Below are positions 1 through 35,030 of a stretch of DNA of 64,000 nucleotides, piece by piece. The translations under genes were made by a program, and so were the position numbers. The notes beneath the pieces were generated by a model. That model was given only the letters and a program-made list of their open reading frames with translations. It had not been told where the DNA came from and did no database searches. Positions within the stretch are counted from its first letter, which is position 1. Every line of letters begins with the position of its first letter. Source of the DNA: Escherichia coli (GTDB lineage Bacteria > Pseudomonadota > Gammaproteobacteria > Enterobacterales > Enterobacteriaceae); assembly GCF_048403405.1 (NCBI RefSeq), contig NZ_CP183129.1. The stretch is one strand, 5' to 3'.

Positions 1-1167
1 AAATACCCATAAATAACGCAGCGGCATCACTACCGAATTAAGGTTCAACAGCCATTTATAGAGATTGTTCATATCACCAATGCCGAGAGTCGGTAGCATT
101 ATCAGAATCGCCACCAGCACCAGGGTCAGAAAATAGCCATTAACGGGCGTACCAGAAGCGTTGGTACGACATAAACTGGCTGGAATATATTTGCTGTCAG
201 CATCGCCTAATAACACTTTAAGCGGCGCATCAATCGAGAATACCAGCGCAGCTACTTGTCCCAGGGTATTCGCAATGGCATAAATCACCATTAAAGTATT
301 ACCCATGTTGTAATACTCGCCCAGCTTCTGAAAGGCGTAATACTGACCGTTAGTCATTAAGTCATCCGGGATATTACGCGAGTCAAACATCATCCCCATC
401 GCCAGTGAGCCCAGAATGGCACAAACCGCAACCATCACCGCCAGGCATAACATCCCTTTTGGAAATTCTTTTCCTGGGTTGCGCGTTTGATTAACGTAAG
501 GAGAAATCTTCTCTGCTCCGCCAACCGCGAAAACCAGCATTGAAATAGTGGTAATGTAGGTAAAGTCGATATGAGGAATGAACGTTTCCCAGGTAATGTT
601 TGTGGTCGCAATATGCACTTCAGTAATTGCAGGCGCGGTTACCGCCATCGCCACATACAGGAGCGACATAACAAACATCGCAATCCCTGCCACAGAACCG
701 ACGATTTTCAGCGATTTCATACCGCGTGAAGCAACCCACATAAAGAAGATAAACAGCACCAGCGTTAACCCCTGTAACGCTACGACTGAATATTCTTTGA
801 TTAACGAACCGTCGCCTTTCATCGCCCAACCGAGCGCAATCAGTATTGCCTGGGGTTTTTGTGCCAGATAGGGAATATGCACTACCCAGTAGGTCCACGC
901 GGCGAGGTAAGCCAGTCCGGGTCCCATCGTGTGTTTAATCCAGGTACTGACCCCGCCCTTCCCATCTTTGAAGGTCGAGCCTAACTGACCAACAATTAGC
1001 GCATAAGGTGTGAAATAGAGCGCAAAGATAAACACCCATGAAAAAACAACCACCAGCCCCTGGTTGGCGTAGTTATTAACAACGTTGCCAAAACCCCAGA
1101 CAGTGATAAAAGACATCAGCGCAATGTTGTACCATCGCAGCTGTTTTTCCTGAACATTCCCAGCCAT
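1..1167 (-). CDS. ycaM: Putative APC-family amino-acid transporter, 5'-complete but truncated at the window edge (3' end missing)
   Basis: Open frame on the minus strand runs off the window start; the ATG at 1165-1167 gives MAGNVQEKQLRW, matching the remembered YcaM N-terminus; position upstream of ycaD as in K-12. Confidence 0.8.
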   Translation of the reverse strand, partial: MAGNVQEKQLRWYNIALMSFITVWGFGNVVNNYANQGLVVVFSWVFIFALYFTPYALIVGQLGSTFKDGKGGVSTWIKHTMGPGLAYLAAWTYWVVHIPYLAQKPQAILIALGWAMKGDGSLIKEYSVVALQGLTLVLFIFFMWVASRGMKSLKIVGSVAGIAMFVMSLLYVAMAVTAPAITEVHIATTNITWETFIPHIDFTYITTISMLVFAVGGAEKISPYVNQTRNPGKEFPKGMLCLAVMVAVCAILGSLAMGMMFDSRNIPDDLMTNGQYYAFQKLGEYYNMGNTLMVIYAIANTLGQVAALVFSIDAPLKVLLGDADSKYIPASLCRTNASGTPVNGYFLTLVLVAILIMLPTLGIGDMNNLYKWLLNLNSVVMPLRYLWVF

Positions 1168-1376: not shown

Positions 1377-2525
1377 TTACACGTGAGCAACGGGTTTCGG
1401 CGTATGACCGGCGTTGCGAAGCAGCATCAGCAAATAGATAAACGATACGCTGGCGATCATGATAAACAATAAATTATCGGAGAAATTCTGCATTAGCATG
1501 GCAGTAAATGACGGGCCAAGCAGACTTCCCACGGTATAGCTCAACAGTAAGGCCTGGTTCATCGCCACCAGTTGATGATGTTCAACTTTCTCGCAAGCCC
1601 ATGCCATCGCCACCGGATATAGCGTAAAGCCAGCGGCACCGAGGATGAATAACGCTGGGGCCATCGCCGCCTGGCTAAGCATCGCGATACTGCCGAGAAT
1701 GACGACAAAGACCTGAACACGCAACACCAGCAGTCGACCAAACTTATCCGCCAGACGTCCAATCGGCCATTGTCCAAGGATACCCGCACTGACCAGTACC
1801 GCCATCCAGAAACCAATGCTGGCATTGCTCACCCCTTTGTGATTGAGGTACAGCGGCATCAGGCCATATAGAGATCCCAGAACGATTCCTGAGATAATGC
1901 AGCCATTCACGCCAAGCCGCGCCTGACGGAGTTTTAGCATTGACGTAATTGACGTCGCATCATGGTTTTCAGCCTGCTGATTCAGCACACGCGTAAACAA
2001 CAACGGTAAGATCCCTGCCAACGTCAAACCTGTAACCCACGGCAATACGGACATCAGCTCGGTTGAAACTTTGCTGACCAGTAACTGGCCTAAAAACGTT
2101 CCCACGTAATAAACCATCATATACGCAGCAAGCAAACGCCCACGGTTACGTGACGTCCCACTGCACATCAGCGCGCTCTCAACAACCACCCAAATCATGG
2201 CACAGCCGACGCCGGCGACAAAACGCCAAGCCAACCAGCTCCAGAATCCAATCATTAGACCAAGGCCGGCACAGCCAGCGGCAAAAATGAAGGAGGCCAG
2301 ATAATAGCTGCGGTTAAAGCCAATGCGCTTAATGACATACCCTGTCAGCAATGTACCGACCAGGTTGCCGGTAAAATAGGATGAGCTGACAACGCCTACC
2401 TGCCATGTGGACATGTGTTCCTGGGCGAGCCAAAGCGGTACGAGTGTATTTAACACTGCGATCGCCAGAGTCAACAAAAGCAGGCCAGACAGCAAAAGCA
2501 TGACAGGCCGGGTATACGTGGACAT
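1377..2525 (-). CDS. ycaD: MFS transporter YcaD
   Basis: 382-aa ORF, multi-helix hydrophobic MFS-like sequence; length and synteny match K-12 YcaD. Confidence 0.9.
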
Positions 2526-4994: not shown

Positions 4995-7439
4995 TTACAC
5001 CTTTTCAACCTGAACAAGGTTTGTATGTGACGGATTCCCCTTAGCGAGAGGAGACGGACGTTGAGTGGTCAGTACATTGATACAACCGCCCTTATCGACA
5101 CGTTTTGCATCCGGGTCATACCAGGCACCTTCACCCAGTGCGACCACACCCGGCATCATTCGTGGCGTCACTTTCGCCTCAATATGAACCTCACCACGAT
5201 CGTTAAAGATCCTGACTTTATCGCCGTTGTTGATACCGCGTTTTTGCGCATCAAGCGGGTTGATCCACATTTCCTGACGGCAAGCCGCTTTCAGCACATC
5301 AACGTTGCCGTAAGTTGAGTGAACGCGAGATTTATAGTGGAAACCCGTAAGCTGCAGCGGATATTGTTTGTTCAGCGGATCCTGATAACTTTCAAAGCCC
5401 GGCGTATAGATCGGCAGTGGATCGATCACATCGCCTTCTGGCAATTCCCAAGTCGCGGCAATGTCAGCCAGCGCCTGCGAATAAATCTCAATTTTACCCG
5501 ATGGCGTGGTCAGTGGATTTGCCTGAGGATCTTCACGGAAAGCTTTATAAGCAACGTGGTGCCCTTGTGGGTCGCGCTTTTTAAAGATCCCCTGCTTGCG
5601 GAACTCTTCAAACGTTGGCAGTTCAGGAATCGCTTCCCGCGACTGGGCATACAGATGCCGCATCCACTCTTCCTGTGTACGGCCTTCAGTAAACTGTTGC
5701 TCAACGCCAAGACGTTTTGCCAGTTCGCTGGTCATTTCATAGATGGTCTTACATTCAAAGCGCGGTTTAATCACCTGATCGTTGAAAATCACGTAAGACA
5801 TATTCCCGCAGGATGCATCCAGTGCAAAGTCCATCTGTTCGGAAGCGGTGCAGTCAGGCAGCAGGATGTCAGCATATTTCGCTGATGAGGTCATGTGGCA
5901 GTCGATAACCACAATCAGCTCGCACTTCTTATCATCCTGAAGGATTTCATGGGTACGGTTGATTTCAGAATGCTGGTTAATCAGGCAGTTACCGGCATAG
6001 TTCCAGATCATTTTGATCGGCACATCCAGCTTATCTTTCCCGCGCACACCATCACGCAGCGCTGTCATTTCCGGGCCACGTTCAATGGCATCGGTCCACA
6101 TAAACATCGAAATGCTGGTCTGGATCGGGTTTTCGAGGGTCGGCATACGGACAAACGGTAAGCTGTATGAACCTTCACGCGCGCCGCTGTTGCCTCCGTT
6201 AATACCAACGTTACCGGTCAGAATCGCCAGCATCGAGATAGCACGGGTTGCGATTTCACCGTTAGCGTGACGCTGCGGGCCCCATCCCTGGCTGATAAAC
6301 GCCGGTTTGGTACTGCCGATTTCACGAGCCAGTTTGATGATTTTGTCTGCCGGAACACCGGTGATTTGCGAGGCCCATTCCGGCGTTTTAGCCACGCCAT
6401 CTGGCCCTTCACCCAGAATATAAGCTTTATAGTGACCATTTTTCGGCGCACTGGCTGGCAGTGTTTTCTCGTCGTAGCCAACGCAATATTTATCGAGGAA
6501 TGCCTGATCCACCAGGTTTTCGGTGATCATGACATACGCCAGACCGTTAACCAGTGCGGCATCTGTTCCCGGACGAATGGGGATCCACTCATCTTCGCGC
6601 CCGGCTCCGGTGTCGGTATAGCGCGGATCGATGATGATCATGCGAGCATTAGATTTCTGACGCGCCTGTTCAAGATAGTAAGTCACCCCACCGCCACTCA
6701 TTCGCGTTTCGCCAGGGTTATTACCAAACAGCACTACCAGTTTACTGTTTTCGATATCCGACGGGCTGTTACCATCTGCCCAGCCGCCGTAGGTATAGTT
6801 CAAACCTTCCGCAATTTGCGCGGAAGAGTAGTCACCGTAATGGTTCAGATAACCGCCGCAGCAGTTCATCAGGCGAGCGACCAGGGTATTTCCCGGCGGC
6901 CAGGAGCGGGTCATGGTGCCGCCCAGCGTACCGGTACCATAGTTCAGATAGATAGACTCGTTGCCGTACTCTTTGATCAGGCGCTGCATATTGGTCGCGA
7001 TGATGTCGTAGGCTTCTTCCCAGCTAATGCGCTCGAATTTGCCTTCACCGCGCGCCCCGACTCGTTTCATCGGATATTTCAGGCGGTCCGGATTGTAGAC
7101 ACGGCGACGCATGGAACGCCCACGCAGACAGGCGCGCACCTGGTGCAGGCCGTCATAGTTGTCATCGCCGGTATTATCCGTTTCAACATATTTAATTTCA
7201 CCGTCCACAACGTGCATACGTAGCGGGCAGCGACTACCACAGTTAACTGTACAGGCGCTCCAGATAACCTTTTCGTCTGATTTTGTTGGAATGGCGCTAT
7301 CGACAGCGTGCGCAATCCGACTAAAAGGTAATGTTAATGCGCTGCTGGCCATTGCCAGGCCGCCGATCGCTGTCGTTTTTACCAAACCACGGCGACTCAC
7401 CTCAGCAGCCAATACCGCATCAGGGATTTTCGTTTTCAT
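4995..7439 (-). CDS. dmsA: DMSO reductase catalytic molybdopterin subunit DmsA
   Basis: 814 aa; N-terminal twin-arginine signal (SRRGLVK) and a Cys-rich motif near the N-terminus; synteny dmsABC. Confidence 0.95.
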   Translation of the reverse strand: MKTKIPDAVLAAEVSRRGLVKTTAIGGLAMASSALTLPFSRIAHAVDSAIPTKSDEKVIWSACTVNCGSRCPLRMHVVDGEIKYVETDNTGDDNYDGLHQVRACLRGRSMRRRVYNPDRLKYPMKRVGARGEGKFERISWEEAYDIIATNMQRLIKEYGNESIYLNYGTGTLGGTMTRSWPPGNTLVARLMNCCGGYLNHYGDYSSAQIAEGLNYTYGGWADGNSPSDIENSKLVVLFGNNPGETRMSGGGVTYYLEQARQKSNARMIIIDPRYTDTGAGREDEWIPIRPGTDAALVNGLAYVMITENLVDQAFLDKYCVGYDEKTLPASAPKNGHYKAYILGEGPDGVAKTPEWASQITGVPADKIIKLAREIGSTKPAFISQGWGPQRHANGEIATRAISMLAILTGNVGINGGNSGAREGSYSLPFVRMPTLENPIQTSISMFMWTDAIERGPEMTALRDGVRGKDKLDVPIKMIWNYAGNCLINQHSEINRTHEILQDDKKCELIVVIDCHMTSSAKYADILLPDCTASEQMDFALDASCGNMSYVIFNDQVIKPRFECKTIYEMTSELAKRLGVEQQFTEGRTQEEWMRHLYAQSREAIPELPTFEEFRKQGIFKKRDPQGHHVAYKAFREDPQANPLTTPSGKIEIYSQALADIAATWELPEGDVIDPLPIYTPGFESYQDPLNKQYPLQLTGFHYKSRVHSTYGNVDVLKAACRQEMWINPLDAQKRGINNGDKVRIFNDRGEVHIEAKVTPRMMPGVVALGEGAWYDPDAKRVDKGGCINVLTTQRPSPLAKGNPSHTNLVQVEKV

Positions 7440-7677: not shown

Positions 7678-8991
<1,314 letters not shown>

Positions 8992-22489: not shown

Positions 22490-22577
22490 GGTGAGGTGTC
22501 CGAGTGGCTGAAGGAGCACGCCTGGAAAGTGTGTATACGGCAACGTATCGGGGGTTCGAATCCCCCCCTCACCGCCA
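22490..22577 (+). tRNA. serW: tRNA-Ser (anticodon GGA)
   Basis: 88-nt sequence GGTGAGGTGTCCGAGTGGCTGAAGG...GGTTCGAATCCCCCCCTCACCGCCA with D-loop, long variable arm, T-loop GGTTCGAAT and an anticodon loop containing GGA. Confidence 0.93.
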
Positions 22578-23160
22578 TATTTAAAGAAAAGCTCGTACGA
22601 AAGTGCGAGCTTTTTTTTTCGCATATTGCACTCCAGGGGGGATGAGAAGCCCCGACCGGGGTTCGACAACTGGCGCAGCCAGTTGGACAGACCACGAACA
22701 CAGTGAGTGGGCTGCCCGCAGGGCGAGCGAAGCGAGTCAATCCCCCCCTCACCGCCATATTCAAAGAAGAGCTCGTACGAAAGTGCGAGCTTTTTTTTCG
22801 CATATTGCACTCCAGGGGGGATGAGAAGCCCCGACCGGGGTTCGACAACTGGCGCAGCCAGTTGGACAGACCACGAACACAGTGAGTGGGCTGCCCGCAG
22901 GGCGAGCGAAGCGAGTCTATCCCCCCCTCACCGCCATATTTAAAGAAAAGCTCGTACGAAAGTGCGAGCTTTTTTTTCGCATATTGCACTCCAGGGGGGA
23001 TGAGAAGCCCCGACCGGGGTTCGACAACTGGCGCAGCCAGTTGGACAGACCACGAACGCAGTGAGTGGGCTGCCCGCAGGGCGAGCGAAGCGAGTCTATC
23101 CCCCCCTCACCGCCATATTCAAAGAAGAGCTCGTACGAAAGTACGAGTTTTTTTTCGCAT
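22561..23160 (+). repeat. Tandem array of about 179-bp units, each ending in a copy of the serW 3' end
   Basis: The 17-mer tccccccctcaccgcca recurs at 22561, 22741, 22920 and 23099 (period 179-180); units are near-identical and alternate between two variants (tatttaaagaaaag / tattcaaagaagag); each carries the terminator hairpin. Confidence 0.85.
22587..22619 (+). terminator. Rho-independent terminator after serW
   Basis: Hairpin GCTCGTAC-gaaa-GTGCGAGC followed by nine T; the same hairpin recurs in every downstream repeat unit. Confidence 0.7.
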
Positions 23161-32951: not shown

Positions 32952-33647
32952 ATGTTCAGAAAATTAGCAGCTGAATGTTTTGGTACTTTCTGGCTTGTTT
33001 TTGGTGGCTGTGGTAGTGCCGTACTGGCCGCAGGCTTCCCGGAATTAGGCATTGGTTTTGCCGGCGTGGCGCTGGCATTCGGTCTGACCGTTCTGACGAT
33101 GGCCTTTGCTGTTGGTCATATTTCTGGTGGTCATTTTAACCCGGCGGTCACTATTGGTTTATGGGCTGGCGGACGTTTCCCGGCAAAAGAAGTCGTTGGC
33201 TACGTAATTGCCCAGGTTGTCGGCGGTATTGTTGCGGCGGCGCTGCTGTATTTAATTGCCAGTGGTAAAACGGGTTTTGACGCGGCAGCCAGCGGTTTTG
33301 CTTCTAACGGTTATGGCGAGCATTCGCCAGGCGGTTATTCCATGCTTTCCGCACTGGTAGTTGAACTGGTATTGAGTGCAGGTTTCCTGCTGGTGATCCA
33401 CGGCGCAACCGACAAATACGCTCCGGCAGGTTTTGCACCGATCGCTATTGGTCTGGCCTTAACCCTGATTCACTTAATCAGTATTCCGGTGACTAACACT
33501 TCTGTTAACCCGGCGCGCAGCACCGCGGTTGCTATCTTCCAGGGCGGCTGGGCATTAGAACAACTGTGGTTCTTCTGGGTGGTGCCAATTGTCGGCGGTA
33601 TTATCGGTGGTCTGATTTACCGGACTCTACTGGAAAAGCGTAATTAA
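32952..33647 (+). CDS. aqpZ: Aquaporin Z
   Basis: Start moved to [13 protein letters not shown]... (231 aa); two NPA motifs (HFNPAV, VNPARS). Confidence 0.95.
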
Positions 33648-33656
33648 TTAACGCAG

Positions 33657-33686
33657 AAGGCCTGGCGCAATGTCAGGCCTTTTTTA
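33657..33686 (+). terminator. Rho-independent terminator after aqpZ
   Basis: Hairpin aggcctggcgcaatgtcaggcct followed by TTTTTT. Confidence 0.7.
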
Positions 33687-33699
33687 AATATATTGATTC

Positions 33700-33990
33700 A
33701 TCTTCCTGTTGCGCTCCTTGATGTGTTAAGCCACATATAGTCACTGGCGCAGGGAGCGCGCAGGGGGCGGCCAATCGCCGCCGCCCCCTGCACCCCCAGG
33801 CTCTGGCGAACAAAATCGCCGCTGCGCGGTGCCCTCGACTTATCCCTTACGGCTACCGGGTCGGGCGCGAGGTAACATCCCTGTAAAACGCGCCCTCAGC
33901 CCACATCCATGTGGGCTGCCCCGGCCTTCAGGGAACGCCTCGGCGATTTTGACGCCACCAACACCGGTGCGGTTTGTAATTAAAGCGCAA
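33700..33990. repeat. GC-rich extragenic element built from nested imperfect palindromes
   Basis: Inverted repeats cagggggcggc/gccgccccctg, cagcccacat/atgtgggctg and ggcgaacaaaatcgccg/cggcgattttgacgcc; no ORF. Confidence 0.5.
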
Positions 33991-34130
33991 GAATATCTTT
34001 AAATGAAAATGAATACCCTACCGATCCTTATGCATAACATTTCCTTTTAATTGCAACTTTACTCGCCCTTCCGCTTTCAGTAGTGTGTCATCGCGCATTT
34101 CGACTTCATCTTTGCAAGGACTGGGTTTTC

Positions 34131-35030
34131 ATGTTTTCTGGGCTGTTAATCATTCTGGTTCCCCTGATTGTGGGTTACCTCATTCCTCTTCGCCAAAAAG
34201 CTGCATTAAGAGTTATTAATCAGCTATTAAGCTGGATGGTTTACCTTATTCTCTTTTTTATGGGTATCAGTCTGGCGTTTCTCGATAACCTCGCCAGTAA
34301 CCTGTTGGCGATTCTGCATTATTCTGCCGTCAGTATTACCGTTATTTTACTGTGTAATATTGCCGCCCTTATGTGGCTGGAGCGAGGCCTGCCATGGCGC
34401 AATCACCATCAGCAAGAAAAACTCCCGTCGCGTATTGCGATGGCGCTGGAGTCGCTAAAACTGTGCGGCGTAGTAGTGATTGGTTTTGCCATTGGCCTGA
34501 GTGGACTGGCTTTCTTACAACATGCGACCGAAGCCAGTGAATACACCTTAATTCTGCTACTTTTCCTCGTCGGTATTCAGTTGCGCAATAATGGCATGAC
34601 CTTAAAGCAGATTGTCCTTAATCGCCGGGGAATGATTGTCGCCGTGGTGGTGGTTGCCAGTTCATTAATTGGTGGTTTAATTAACGCCTTTATTCTTGAT
34701 CTTCCCATCAATACCGCGCTGGCAATGGCCTCTGGTTTCGGCTGGTATTCTCTTTCCGGTATTTTATTGACTGAATCTTTTGGTCCGGTAATCGGGAGCG
34801 CGGCGTTTTTTAATGATTTGGCCCGTGAGCTGATTGCTATTATGTTGATCCCCGGGCTGATTCGCCGCAGCCGCTCTACTGCACTGGGCTTATGCGGTGC
34901 CACATCAATGGATTTCACCCTGCCCGTTCTTCAACGTACTGGCGGGCTGGATATGGTCCCGGCGGCGATTGTTCACGGTTTTATTCTTAGTCTGTTAGTG
35001 CCGATCCTCATCGCCTTTTTCTCTGCATAA
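34131..35030 (+). CDS. lysO: Lysine exporter LysO (YbjE)
   Basis: Start moved to MFSGLLIILVPLIVGYL... (299 aa); polytopic membrane protein. Confidence 0.9.
   Translation: MFSGLLIILVPLIVGYLIPLRQKAALRVINQLLSWMVYLILFFMGISLAFLDNLASNLLAILHYSAVSITVILLCNIAALMWLERGLPWRNHHQQEKLPSRIAMALESLKLCGVVVIGFAIGLSGLAFLQHATEASEYTLILLLFLVGIQLRNNGMTLKQIVLNRRGMIVAVVVVASSLIGGLINAFILDLPINTALAMASGFGWYSLSGILLTESFGPVIGSAAFFNDLARELIAIMLIPGLIRRSRSTALGLCGATSMDFTLPVLQRTGGLDMVPAAIVHGFILSLLVPILIAFFSA

Follow-up and report, generated by a model that had tools for sequence, protein, structure and literature searches.

The TRIP1 repeats of Escherichia coli, described by Rudd in 1999, comprise TRIP1a between aqpZ and ybjE (lysO), TRIP1b between putP and ycdN, TRIP1c between yohI (dusC) and yohG, and the rarer types d and e, and each E. 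coli TRIP1 type is bound to one locus (PMC10888264). TRIP1a and TRIP1c were later named the "replication risk sequences" (RRS) RRS-lysO and RRS-dusC by Pham et al. 2023/2024 (PMC10287960, PMC11194060). RRS are 222-bp GC-rich inverted repeats, each located about 650 kb from dif, and they give the two strongest RecA/SSB-ssDNA peaks of the genome, on the lagging strand. In MG1655, these peaks are lost upon deletion of the RRS and gained at ectopic RRS sites, and polymerases stall at the predicted G-quadruplex (G4) GGGGGTGCAGGGGGCGGCGG. Deletion of both RRS was obtained only together with a compensating 200-kb amplification, at least one copy being conditionally essential in K-12, and losing or inverting both RRS alters supercoiling genome-wide (PMC10287960, PMC11194060, bioRxiv 10.64898/2026.06.16.732529). 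In single-molecule experiments, the G4 strand on the lagging template led to a gap at nearly every replisome encounter, and the complementary C strand to a gap at about two thirds of encounters (bioRxiv 10.64898/2026.06.16.732529, Kusi-Appauh et al. 2026). The phenotypes published in the RRS papers are cis effects of DNA, observed on M13 and rolling-circle templates.

The only other bacterial G-quadruplex-triggered programmed gap named by the RRS authors is the pilE G4 element of Neisseria gonorrhoeae, which differs from RRS in its unrelated sequence, its role in antigenic variation and its need for an sRNA transcript. Among the extragenic enterobacterial repeats, REP/BIME and ERIC/IRU are likewise GC-rich or palindromic and lie between genes, but they are far shorter (~35 and ~127 bp, respectively), and REP reaches hundreds of copies. 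At the RNA level, the TwoAYGGAY motif (Rfam RF01731; Weinberg et al. 2010), whose function is unknown, consists of an outer stem around two adjacent hairpins with GGA loops, and RNAs of this family have been proposed to bind CsrA (PMC4333381).

Identity and extent of the aqpZ-lysO element

The block at positions 33700-33990 of the window (the whole 64-kb stretch of E. coli DNA that was analyzed) lies between aqpZ and lysO, and the element is about 60 bp beyond the aqpZ stop at 33647. Its G+C content is 62.5%, rising to 65.4% in the interval 33708-33973 and to 68% in a 222-bp core, whereas the window as a whole has 51%, and lysO and aqpZ have 48-53%. The first-pass annotation had described a GC-rich, non-coding, palindromic block between the aqpZ terminator and the lysO start, and both the flanks and the composition agree with this description; the three long inverted repeats that it listed were all recovered, two of them being perfect (Table 1). 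No notable open reading frame or annotated feature was found within 33700-33990, and the curated record of MG1655 annotates nothing, including RNA, between lysO and aqpZ. Two small open reading frames, a plus-strand one of 57 aa (33829-34002) and a minus-strand one of 46 aa, were discarded, as their frames are broken by indels among the copies.

Based on its sequence, position and genomic context, we identify the block, with a probability of about 90%, as the published TRIP1a repeat or RRS-lysO, which together with one other full-length copy makes up the replication risk sequences of E. coli, with a mechanism at the DNA level. The core agrees with RRS-lysO of MG1655 (915025-915246) at 220 of 222 positions (99.1% identity, two substitutions) and with RRS-dusC of MG1655 at 98.2% over 220 bp, and its position relative to the lysO ATG (168-389 bp upstream) is exactly that of the published RRS definition. 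Besides this distance, it shares with the MG1655 elements the G4 motif without mismatch and, as predicted, the strand on which this motif lies with respect to the fork. Whether K-12 has the block had been left open at first; it does, with 95.5% identity over 311 bp. The left flank carries a deletion of 10-11 bp relative to K-12.

The affiliation to the TRIP1 family follows from a match to K-12 TRIP1a at a coverage of at least 80%, the location at the aqpZ-ybjE (lysO) site and a G+C content within 62-65%. Family features also include the length of about 266 bp, the paralogues at yohI/dusC and putP and the occurrence in both orientations; we found no difference of consequence, and the window copy represents the "forward" TRIP1a type. 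In an alignment of the paralogues, similarity spans GTTGCGCTCC to GACGCCACC and further. The extent of about 290 bp assigned at first therefore holds a real block, of which the conserved unit is somewhat narrower, with TRIP1a at about 33708-33973 and the RRS core at 33742-33963. The view that the block is no canonical REP or ERIC is shared here: on inspection of the sequence we saw no likeness to either and judge the element to be neither. The element was already known, and the first-pass annotation had missed both its published identity and its experimentally shown function at the DNA level.

Table 1. Features of the aqpZ-lysO region, in coordinates of the window
Feature	Position	Strand	Basis or remark
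Allelic block	33652..34031	.	Replaced in about 1/4 of E. coli by a block with the element reversed; outer junctions identical
aqpZ intrinsic terminator, hairpin AAGGCCTG...CAGGCCTT (33657-33681) plus T run	33657..33688	+	Inverted-repeat search, sequence
TRIP1a repeat, 266 bp	33708..33973	.	Ends 158 bp upstream of the lysO start codon; limits as set in Rudd 1999 and by Li et al. 2024 (PMC10888264)
Closing stem of 33710-33714 and 33747-33751	33710..33751	.	Helix 11; outside the 222-bp RRS, inside TRIP1
RRS-lysO core, 222 bp	33742..33963	- (G-rich "RRS-G4" strand)	168-389 bp upstream of the lysO ATG; definition of PMC11194060
Inverted repeat GCAGGGGGCGGC / GCCGCCCCCTGC	33760-33771 / 33780-33791		12 nt, 100% complementary
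Perfect GC hairpin GCAGGGGGCGGC / GCCGCCCCCTGC	33760..33791	.	12 bp; about 18 pairs on the G strand through G.U; sequesters the G runs of the G4 motif
Published G-quadruplex-forming motif GGGGGTGCAGGGGGCGGCGG	33778..33797	-	One exact match in the window, 0 expected by chance
Long-range outer stem, 33944-33957 with 33804-33818	33804..33957	-	Helix 1; around the two-hairpin domain
Inverted repeat CAAAATCGCCGCTGCG / CGCCTCGGCGATTTTG	33811-33826 / 33936-33951		16 nt, 88%
Hairpin 2, apical motif ACAGGGAUGU on the G strand	33863..33895	-	Helices 7 and 8
Inverted repeat CAGCCCACAT / ATGTGGGCTG	33897-33906 / 33909-33918		10 nt, 100%
Hairpin 1, loop AUGG within ACAUGGAUGU on the G strand	33897..33918	-	Inverted repeat, consensus fold
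lysO (L-lysine exporter) CDS	34131..35030	+	Neighbour gene, outside the element; ATG at 34131

Copies and alleles in E. coli

A 311-bp query was matched in 5,425 of 5,426 complete E. coli genomes, in 5,382 of them with a coverage of at least 80%. The number of places per genome has a median of three and a maximum of eight, and five were counted in NZ_CP128875.1, a genome that is identical at this query. These numbers show a dispersed repeat family, and the element is not a single-copy, unstructured spacer. At yohP-dusC, copies L003 and L005 are full length and 94% identical; the copy at putP-efeU, which corresponds to TRIP1b, is shortened by an internal deletion of its central 125 bp.

Approximately 1,400 of the 5,426 genomes (~26%) match a 1.1-kb aqpZ-lysO query at its two ends only. 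In O157:H7, EC21Z-147 and E69, a replacement block was found in which the element is reverse-complemented and the aqpZ terminator hairpin is missing. This terminator lies outside the repeat proper, as part of the "type A" allelic block, and the "type B" allele in O157:H7 does not have it. The yohP-dusC spacer is equally dimorphic (L003 and L005 versus L004 and L083). Published counts give 3,448 forward and 1,255 reverse copies (~27%) for TRIP1a, and 2,952 forward and 2,789 reverse copies (about half) for TRIP1c (PMC10888264). Both the lysO and the dusC copy are reversed in E69, so that at least one such genome exists, and in FDAARGOS_1300 and WP4-W18-ESBL-08 the two-hairpin core is deleted in place. 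A simple inversion and the known megabase inversion between TRIP1a and TRIP1c were both rejected as sources of the reversed alleles, since the genes on either side stay the same and the inner flanks of the two alleles do not correspond by reverse complementation. No empty aqpZ-lysO site was found in the E. coli genomes sampled, the variation consisting of orientation and internal deletions.

A conserved fold on the G-rich strand

Folding predictions gave stable structures beyond chance on both strands (z of about -5 to -7). As RNA, the minus strand reached -145.9 kcal/mol with z = -5.6, compared to -129.8 kcal/mol with z = -5.3 for the plus strand, and none of 200 dinucleotide shuffles was as stable on either strand; as DNA, the two strands gave z values of -6.95 and -7.6, again with no shuffle as stable. 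We aligned the G-rich strand of 19 different copies, taken from Escherichia, two Kluyvera species, Enterobacter sp. ENT03, Pseudocitrobacter and a Klebsiella-like MAG. The resulting consensus fold contains 73 pairs, with standard pairing in 99.2% of the cells. Changes on both sides were observed at 17 consensus pairs, a covariation reached by none of 500 shuffles, and controls with slid partners gave at most six such pairs.

The fold is biased towards the G strand. G.U cells outnumber A.C cells by 57 to 2, or by about 20 to 2 if two unchanging G.U pairs are left out; RNAalifold, run independently on the C strand, returned a weaker consensus (-102.3 versus -114.6 kcal/mol), and the G strand was about 15 kcal/mol more stable in all 19 copies. 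The formation of a conserved multi-hairpin structure on the G-rich single strand fits what the RRS model needs, and the data are compatible with ssDNA and RNA alike.

Compensatory changes occur at 5 of the 12 pairs of the outer stem (helix 1). Within it, a stem pair of hairpin 1 changes from A-U to G-C in 5 of the 19 sequences and the apical pair of hairpin 2 covaries, the GGA of both loops being invariant. The closing stem surrounds a segment of about 32 nt that is highly variable between copies. As a side observation, the invariant GGA loops have no part in the current RRS gap model.

The arms of the GC hairpin covary as well, copy L004 having C>A twice, matched by G>U twice, which argues that the hairpin is under selection. 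Since one arm of this covarying hairpin of 12-18 bp is made up of the G4 motif's G runs, the structure that blocks the polymerase may not necessarily be a quadruplex, and the GC hairpin may itself be the block or a part of it.

Orientation of the G4 motif and the gap model

In MG1655, GGGGGTGCAGGGGGCGGCGG belongs to the top strand in the lysO copy and to the bottom strand in the dusC copy, and the plus strand of the window contains no match to it. Throughout the 64 kb, the GC skew of the plus strand is negative (cumulative -0.56), and the gene order is the reverse complement of that in MG1655. From the negative skew together with the inverted gene order, the minus (G) strand is predicted to act as lagging-strand template. 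Within a window that contains neither ori nor dif, these features indicate that the G4 strand has the K-12 orientation on the lagging-strand template and corresponds to the top strand of the right replichore of MG1655.

By analogy, the copy of this strain probably behaves as the K-12 copy does. A fork unwinding the element would leave the G-rich strand of the lagging template, here the minus strand, transiently single-stranded. With its GGGGGTGCAGGGGGCGGCGG motif, this strand would adopt a very stable fold and lagging-strand synthesis would be blocked, leaving an ssDNA gap of up to 2 kb that would be loaded with SSB and RecA. We infer that the conserved hairpins would add to the block beside the G4. 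In the proposal of the RRS authors, such programmed transient gaps would work as relief valves for DNA topology where the Ter macrodomain ends.

The natural alleles are not in full accord with this model. Reversed copies at about 27% of lysO and about half of dusC sites, the reversal of both in E69 and the strains with a deleted core are awkward for a strict requirement of the G4 on the lagging template. This conflict is softened by the 2026 preprint, in which about two thirds of the replisome encounters with the C strand lead to gaps as well. In addition, the many copies at unrelated loci in Klebsiella and Kluyvera fit poorly with a role at the Ter boundary.

Relationship to the TwoAYGGAY motif

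The element shares with TwoAYGGAY the outer stem around two adjacent GGA-loop hairpins, and the loop of its hairpin 1, CAUGGAUG, agrees with the family consensus. At a permissive threshold, the full RF01731 model matched 33813-33952 on the minus strand with 30.6 bits (E = 0.043) and the dusC copy with 30.9 bits, both below the gathering score of 43. Apart from this sub-threshold likeness, the Rfam scan returned no riboswitch or leader. The loop of hairpin 1 reads AUGGAU (AGGGAU in Kluyvera) and that of hairpin 2 AGGGAU or AGGGAC, GGA being invariant and position 2 often G. Compared to TwoAYGGAY, the element thus has a second loop AGGGAU in place of AYGGAY, is longer and carries a 3' G-rich GC hairpin; moreover, TwoAYGGAY is an RNA motif, whereas the demonstrated activity of the element is on DNA.

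A first alternative to a purely DNA-level role is that the element acts, solely or in addition, as an RNA gene: a structured non-coding RNA of TwoAYGGAY type would be encoded by the G-rich minus strand, and its two GGA-loop hairpins would bind and titrate an RNA-binding protein such as CsrA. The CsrA SELEX consensus is RUACARGGAUGU, and both hairpin loops, ACA[U/G]GGAUGU, come close to it. For TwoAYGGAY itself, CsrA binding has been proposed, as mentioned above. Invariant loops on covarying stems also agree with such an RNA, and the G.U bias favours the G strand, but the tolerance of G.T wobbles in ssDNA explains this strand bias equally well. Neither a sigma-70-like promoter nor an intrinsic terminator was predicted in or beside the element at four loci (E. 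coli, Kluyvera, Enterobacter, Pseudocitrobacter). Two promoter candidates picked by eye were discarded for their wrong spacings: TTGCGC...CATATA, which lies within the variable loop, and the minus-strand TTCATT-17-TTTAAT. MG1655 has no annotated RNA at the site, and ybjE and dusC are unbound in gene-level CsrA CLIP tables, which, being gene-based, are silent on the spacer. Taken together with the published cis effects on M13 and rolling-circle templates, we regard an RNA gene as unlikely; for the small-RNA gene suggested by the first-pass annotation, neither a predicted promoter or terminator nor a published transcript was found, despite the likeness of the structure to an Rfam motif.

Further points for a relationship with TwoAYGGAY come from other genera. 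Pseudocitrobacter carries a TwoAYGGAY match of 49.2 bits, above the gathering score, at 90 nt from its RRS copy, on the opposite strand and divergent, and in K. cryocrescens a match of 39.4 bits lies beside the RRS in the same divergent arrangement. Each examined copy in Kluyvera, Enterobacter and Pseudocitrobacter has such a divergent partner arm. A covariance model built from the two-hairpin module of the RRS alone finds the partners in Pseudocitrobacter and K. cryocrescens and further ones in Enterobacter and Kluyvera, with E values of 0.01-0.4 (0.01-0.06 for the reciprocal recovery that bears on the RNA-gene reading). Conservation of the partner arms extends over all three genera, and these arms end in G runs and a GC hairpin. 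They are collinear with the RRS arms over about 210 nt and share their structure, with compensatory changes in 26 of 44 pairs. E. coli is devoid of the partner arm, to which a single partial match was found among the 5,426 genomes. In 18 Clostridiales loci that have the same GC hairpin, no TwoAYGGAY was found at the Rfam gathering threshold, and this co-occurrence was put down to chance.

A tentative reading of these data, which we consider possible but doubtful, is that RRS/TRIP1 is a diverged paralogue of the orphan TwoAYGGAY family and that the ancestral unit was the two-armed composite seen in other Enterobacteriaceae. This composite would consist of an RRS arm and a TwoAYGGAY arm on opposite strands, each with two GGA-loop hairpins, G runs and a GC hairpin. 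In the published work on RRS/TRIP1 that we found, a link to TwoAYGGAY is not mentioned, and the main paper contains none of the words "hairpin", "Rfam" and "CsrA". We present the link as a speculative side lead next to the identification as TRIP1a/RRS-lysO.

Spread across genera and the question of mobility

Outside E. coli, copies of the element occur at unrelated loci in several genera: behind mdlB, behind the gene of a TonB-dependent receptor, in the spacer that separates urtA from urtB, and in one flanked by an mscS-like and a pcaD-like gene. In Kluyvera, many copies lie at contig ends, where the assemblies break, and one K. pneumoniae chromosome has 13 places. Genome contigs were scanned with the pattern CAGGGGGCGGC-N(4-12)-GCCGCCCCCTG, which returned at least 120 loci, and the enterobacterial loci alone were used; most of the others are irrelevant, because the hairpin is generic in GC-rich bacteria.

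This distribution, together with the two orientations at one E. coli intergenic site with differing flanks and the short derivatives such as TRIP1b at putP-efeU, could suggest a non-autonomous, MITE-like mobile element of enterobacterial spacers, the structure of which serves transposition and not the host. A miniature inverted-repeat element had indeed been considered at first. However, neither terminal inverted repeats nor target-site duplications were found at the junctions of the type A and type B alleles or of the paralogues, and similarity fades gradually at the ends, with no sharp stop. The lack of an empty site among the sampled E. coli and the restriction of every TRIP1 type to a single locus (PMC10888264) likewise speak against transposition. 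No match was found in the phage collection; all matching plasmid records in PLSDB are typed as non-mobilizable, several of them being mislabelled chromosomes; and no transposase or other enzyme was found in association with the element. A present-day mobile element is hence quite improbable, and mobility is possible rather as an origin of TRIP1a/RRS-lysO through past spread than as its present function.

Finally, the earlier suggestion of a cis-acting 5' leader or riboswitch-like RNA controlling lysO, for which the location upstream of lysO on the same side and the good folding of the plus-strand RNA could be quoted, is refuted in practice and can be excluded: the aqpZ-lysO and yohP-dusC copies occur in both orientations, and about 1,400 of 5,426 genomes have the reverse complement of the element at this very site next to lysO; copies of 94-98% identity lie downstream of the unrelated neighbours dusC, yohP and putP; internally deleted forms exist in natural strains; conservation of the fold is better on the antisense strand of lysO; Rfam yielded no riboswitch, leader or cis-regulatory match; and the lysO promoter predicted in a genomic SELEX study (-35 TTGACG at 33949-33954, TGTAAT at 33975-33980) lies at the right end of the element, so that most of it would be upstream of the lysO transcript.

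Significance

The locus itself is a rediscovery of a published element, and the gain consists in its correct label. This study shows the identity, position, motif and strand orientation of the copy and the evolutionary conservation of a strand-biased single-strand fold. Only one bacterial sequence besides this element has been reported to programme post-replication gaps, and the reversed and internally deleted natural alleles of the element are ready-made tests of the RRS model. Conservation by compensatory change, with a bias to the G strand, extends beyond the G4 alone to the whole multi-hairpin fold and could sharpen work on RRS, as could the selection on the GC hairpin that competes with the G4.

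If the relationship with TwoAYGGAY is true, the "RNAs" of this family in gut Clostridia and gamma-proteobacteria may be ssDNA elements that programme replication gaps, and two opposite arms would provide a block on the lagging template whichever the direction of the fork. Alternatively, a GGA-hairpin RNA, or a protein that binds this RNA, may take part in the RRS phenotypes. The likeness may thereby give an orphan Rfam family a testable function.

Natural alleles of the element in E. coli

The replication risk sequence (RRS) between aqpZ and lysO is found in E. coli in forward, K-12-type orientation or as a reversed allele, in which the element is reverse-complemented at the same site. In strain E69 (CP089930.1), both the aqpZ-lysO and the dusC-yohP locus carry the reversed allele. 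Variants such as GCTGAAGCG, GGACGTTAC and CCGAAGGGG occur in the reversed alleles of both loci and are missing in K-12-type copies. Such sharing points to the existence of two subfamilies rather than to local inversions.

Natural deletion derivatives were identified in place in the aqpZ-lysO spacer of two strains. FDAARGOS_1300 harbors a reversed allele without the entire two-hairpin core, the deletion being flanked by short direct repeats, and WP4-W18-ESBL-08 a forward allele without the equivalent of window positions ~33845-33938. Both deletion alleles retain the published G-quadruplex-forming motif.

A conserved, covarying stem surrounds a segment of ~32 nt (window 33715-33746); its arms read GCGCTCC / GGAGCGC, and GCGCTCT / AGAGCGC in Enterobacter. 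The segment itself is strongly divergent among copies, also within E. coli, with the semi-conserved GCCATATAAA as the exception.

Distribution and partner arm in other genera

A divergent partner arm of ~215 nt was located 90-180 nt from the RRS copies examined in Pseudocitrobacter, Kluyvera and Enterobacter, and is essentially absent from E. coli. It matches the orphan Rfam motif TwoAYGGAY (RF01731), and G runs with a GC hairpin form its end. The Kluyvera partner arm in locus L099 (~7800-7900, minus strand) carries a 74-nt insertion (columns 210-283 of the partner-arm alignment) in the loop of the second hairpin, and within it an additional GGA-loop hairpin, GTCCCAGGGATGGGAC.

Coordinates of the partner arm at loci from other genomes and of tRNA-Ser(GGA) in the window
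Feature	Locus	Position	Strand	Remark
Partner arm	L050 (Pseudocitrobacter)	2165-2400	+	Rfam TwoAYGGAY match, 49.2 bits
Partner arm	L097 (K. cryocrescens)	~720-1040	-	
Partner arm	L034	~5850-6130	-	
Partner arm	L057	~7950-8260	-	
Partner arm	L059	~6990-7300	+	
tRNA-Ser(GGA)	window	22490-22577		

In K. cryocrescens, three RRS copies lie in ~17 kb, within the first 18 kb of contig NZ_BCTM01000029.1; one of them sits in the spacer of two urea-transporter-like genes, putatively named urtA and urtB from their ORF translations. Among PLSDB records, 13 places matching the element were detected in one from K. pneumoniae and 10, using a distant-mode search, in one from E. coli. Several of these “plasmid” records (CP125156.1, NZ_CP141089.1, NZ_OL790696.1, NZ_CP134663.1) are 4.8-5.4 Mb in size and evidently chromosomes.

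Elsewhere in the window, region 22490-23160 comprises tRNA-Ser(GGA) and, 3' of it, a 179-bp unit repeated in 3.4 tandem copies (97% identical). The start of every unit consists of the tRNA's final ~18 bases (ATCCCCCCCTCACCGCCA) together with a terminator hairpin.

Overlap with the predicted lysO promoter

For lysO, a genomic SELEX paper predicted the promoter TTGACG-19-TGTAAT. This promoter spans window positions 33949-33980, and by our own count its spacer comprises 20 nt instead of the 19 given there. The predicted -35 hexamer (33949-33954) falls within the RRS, at its right end; the reversed allele would not supply it.
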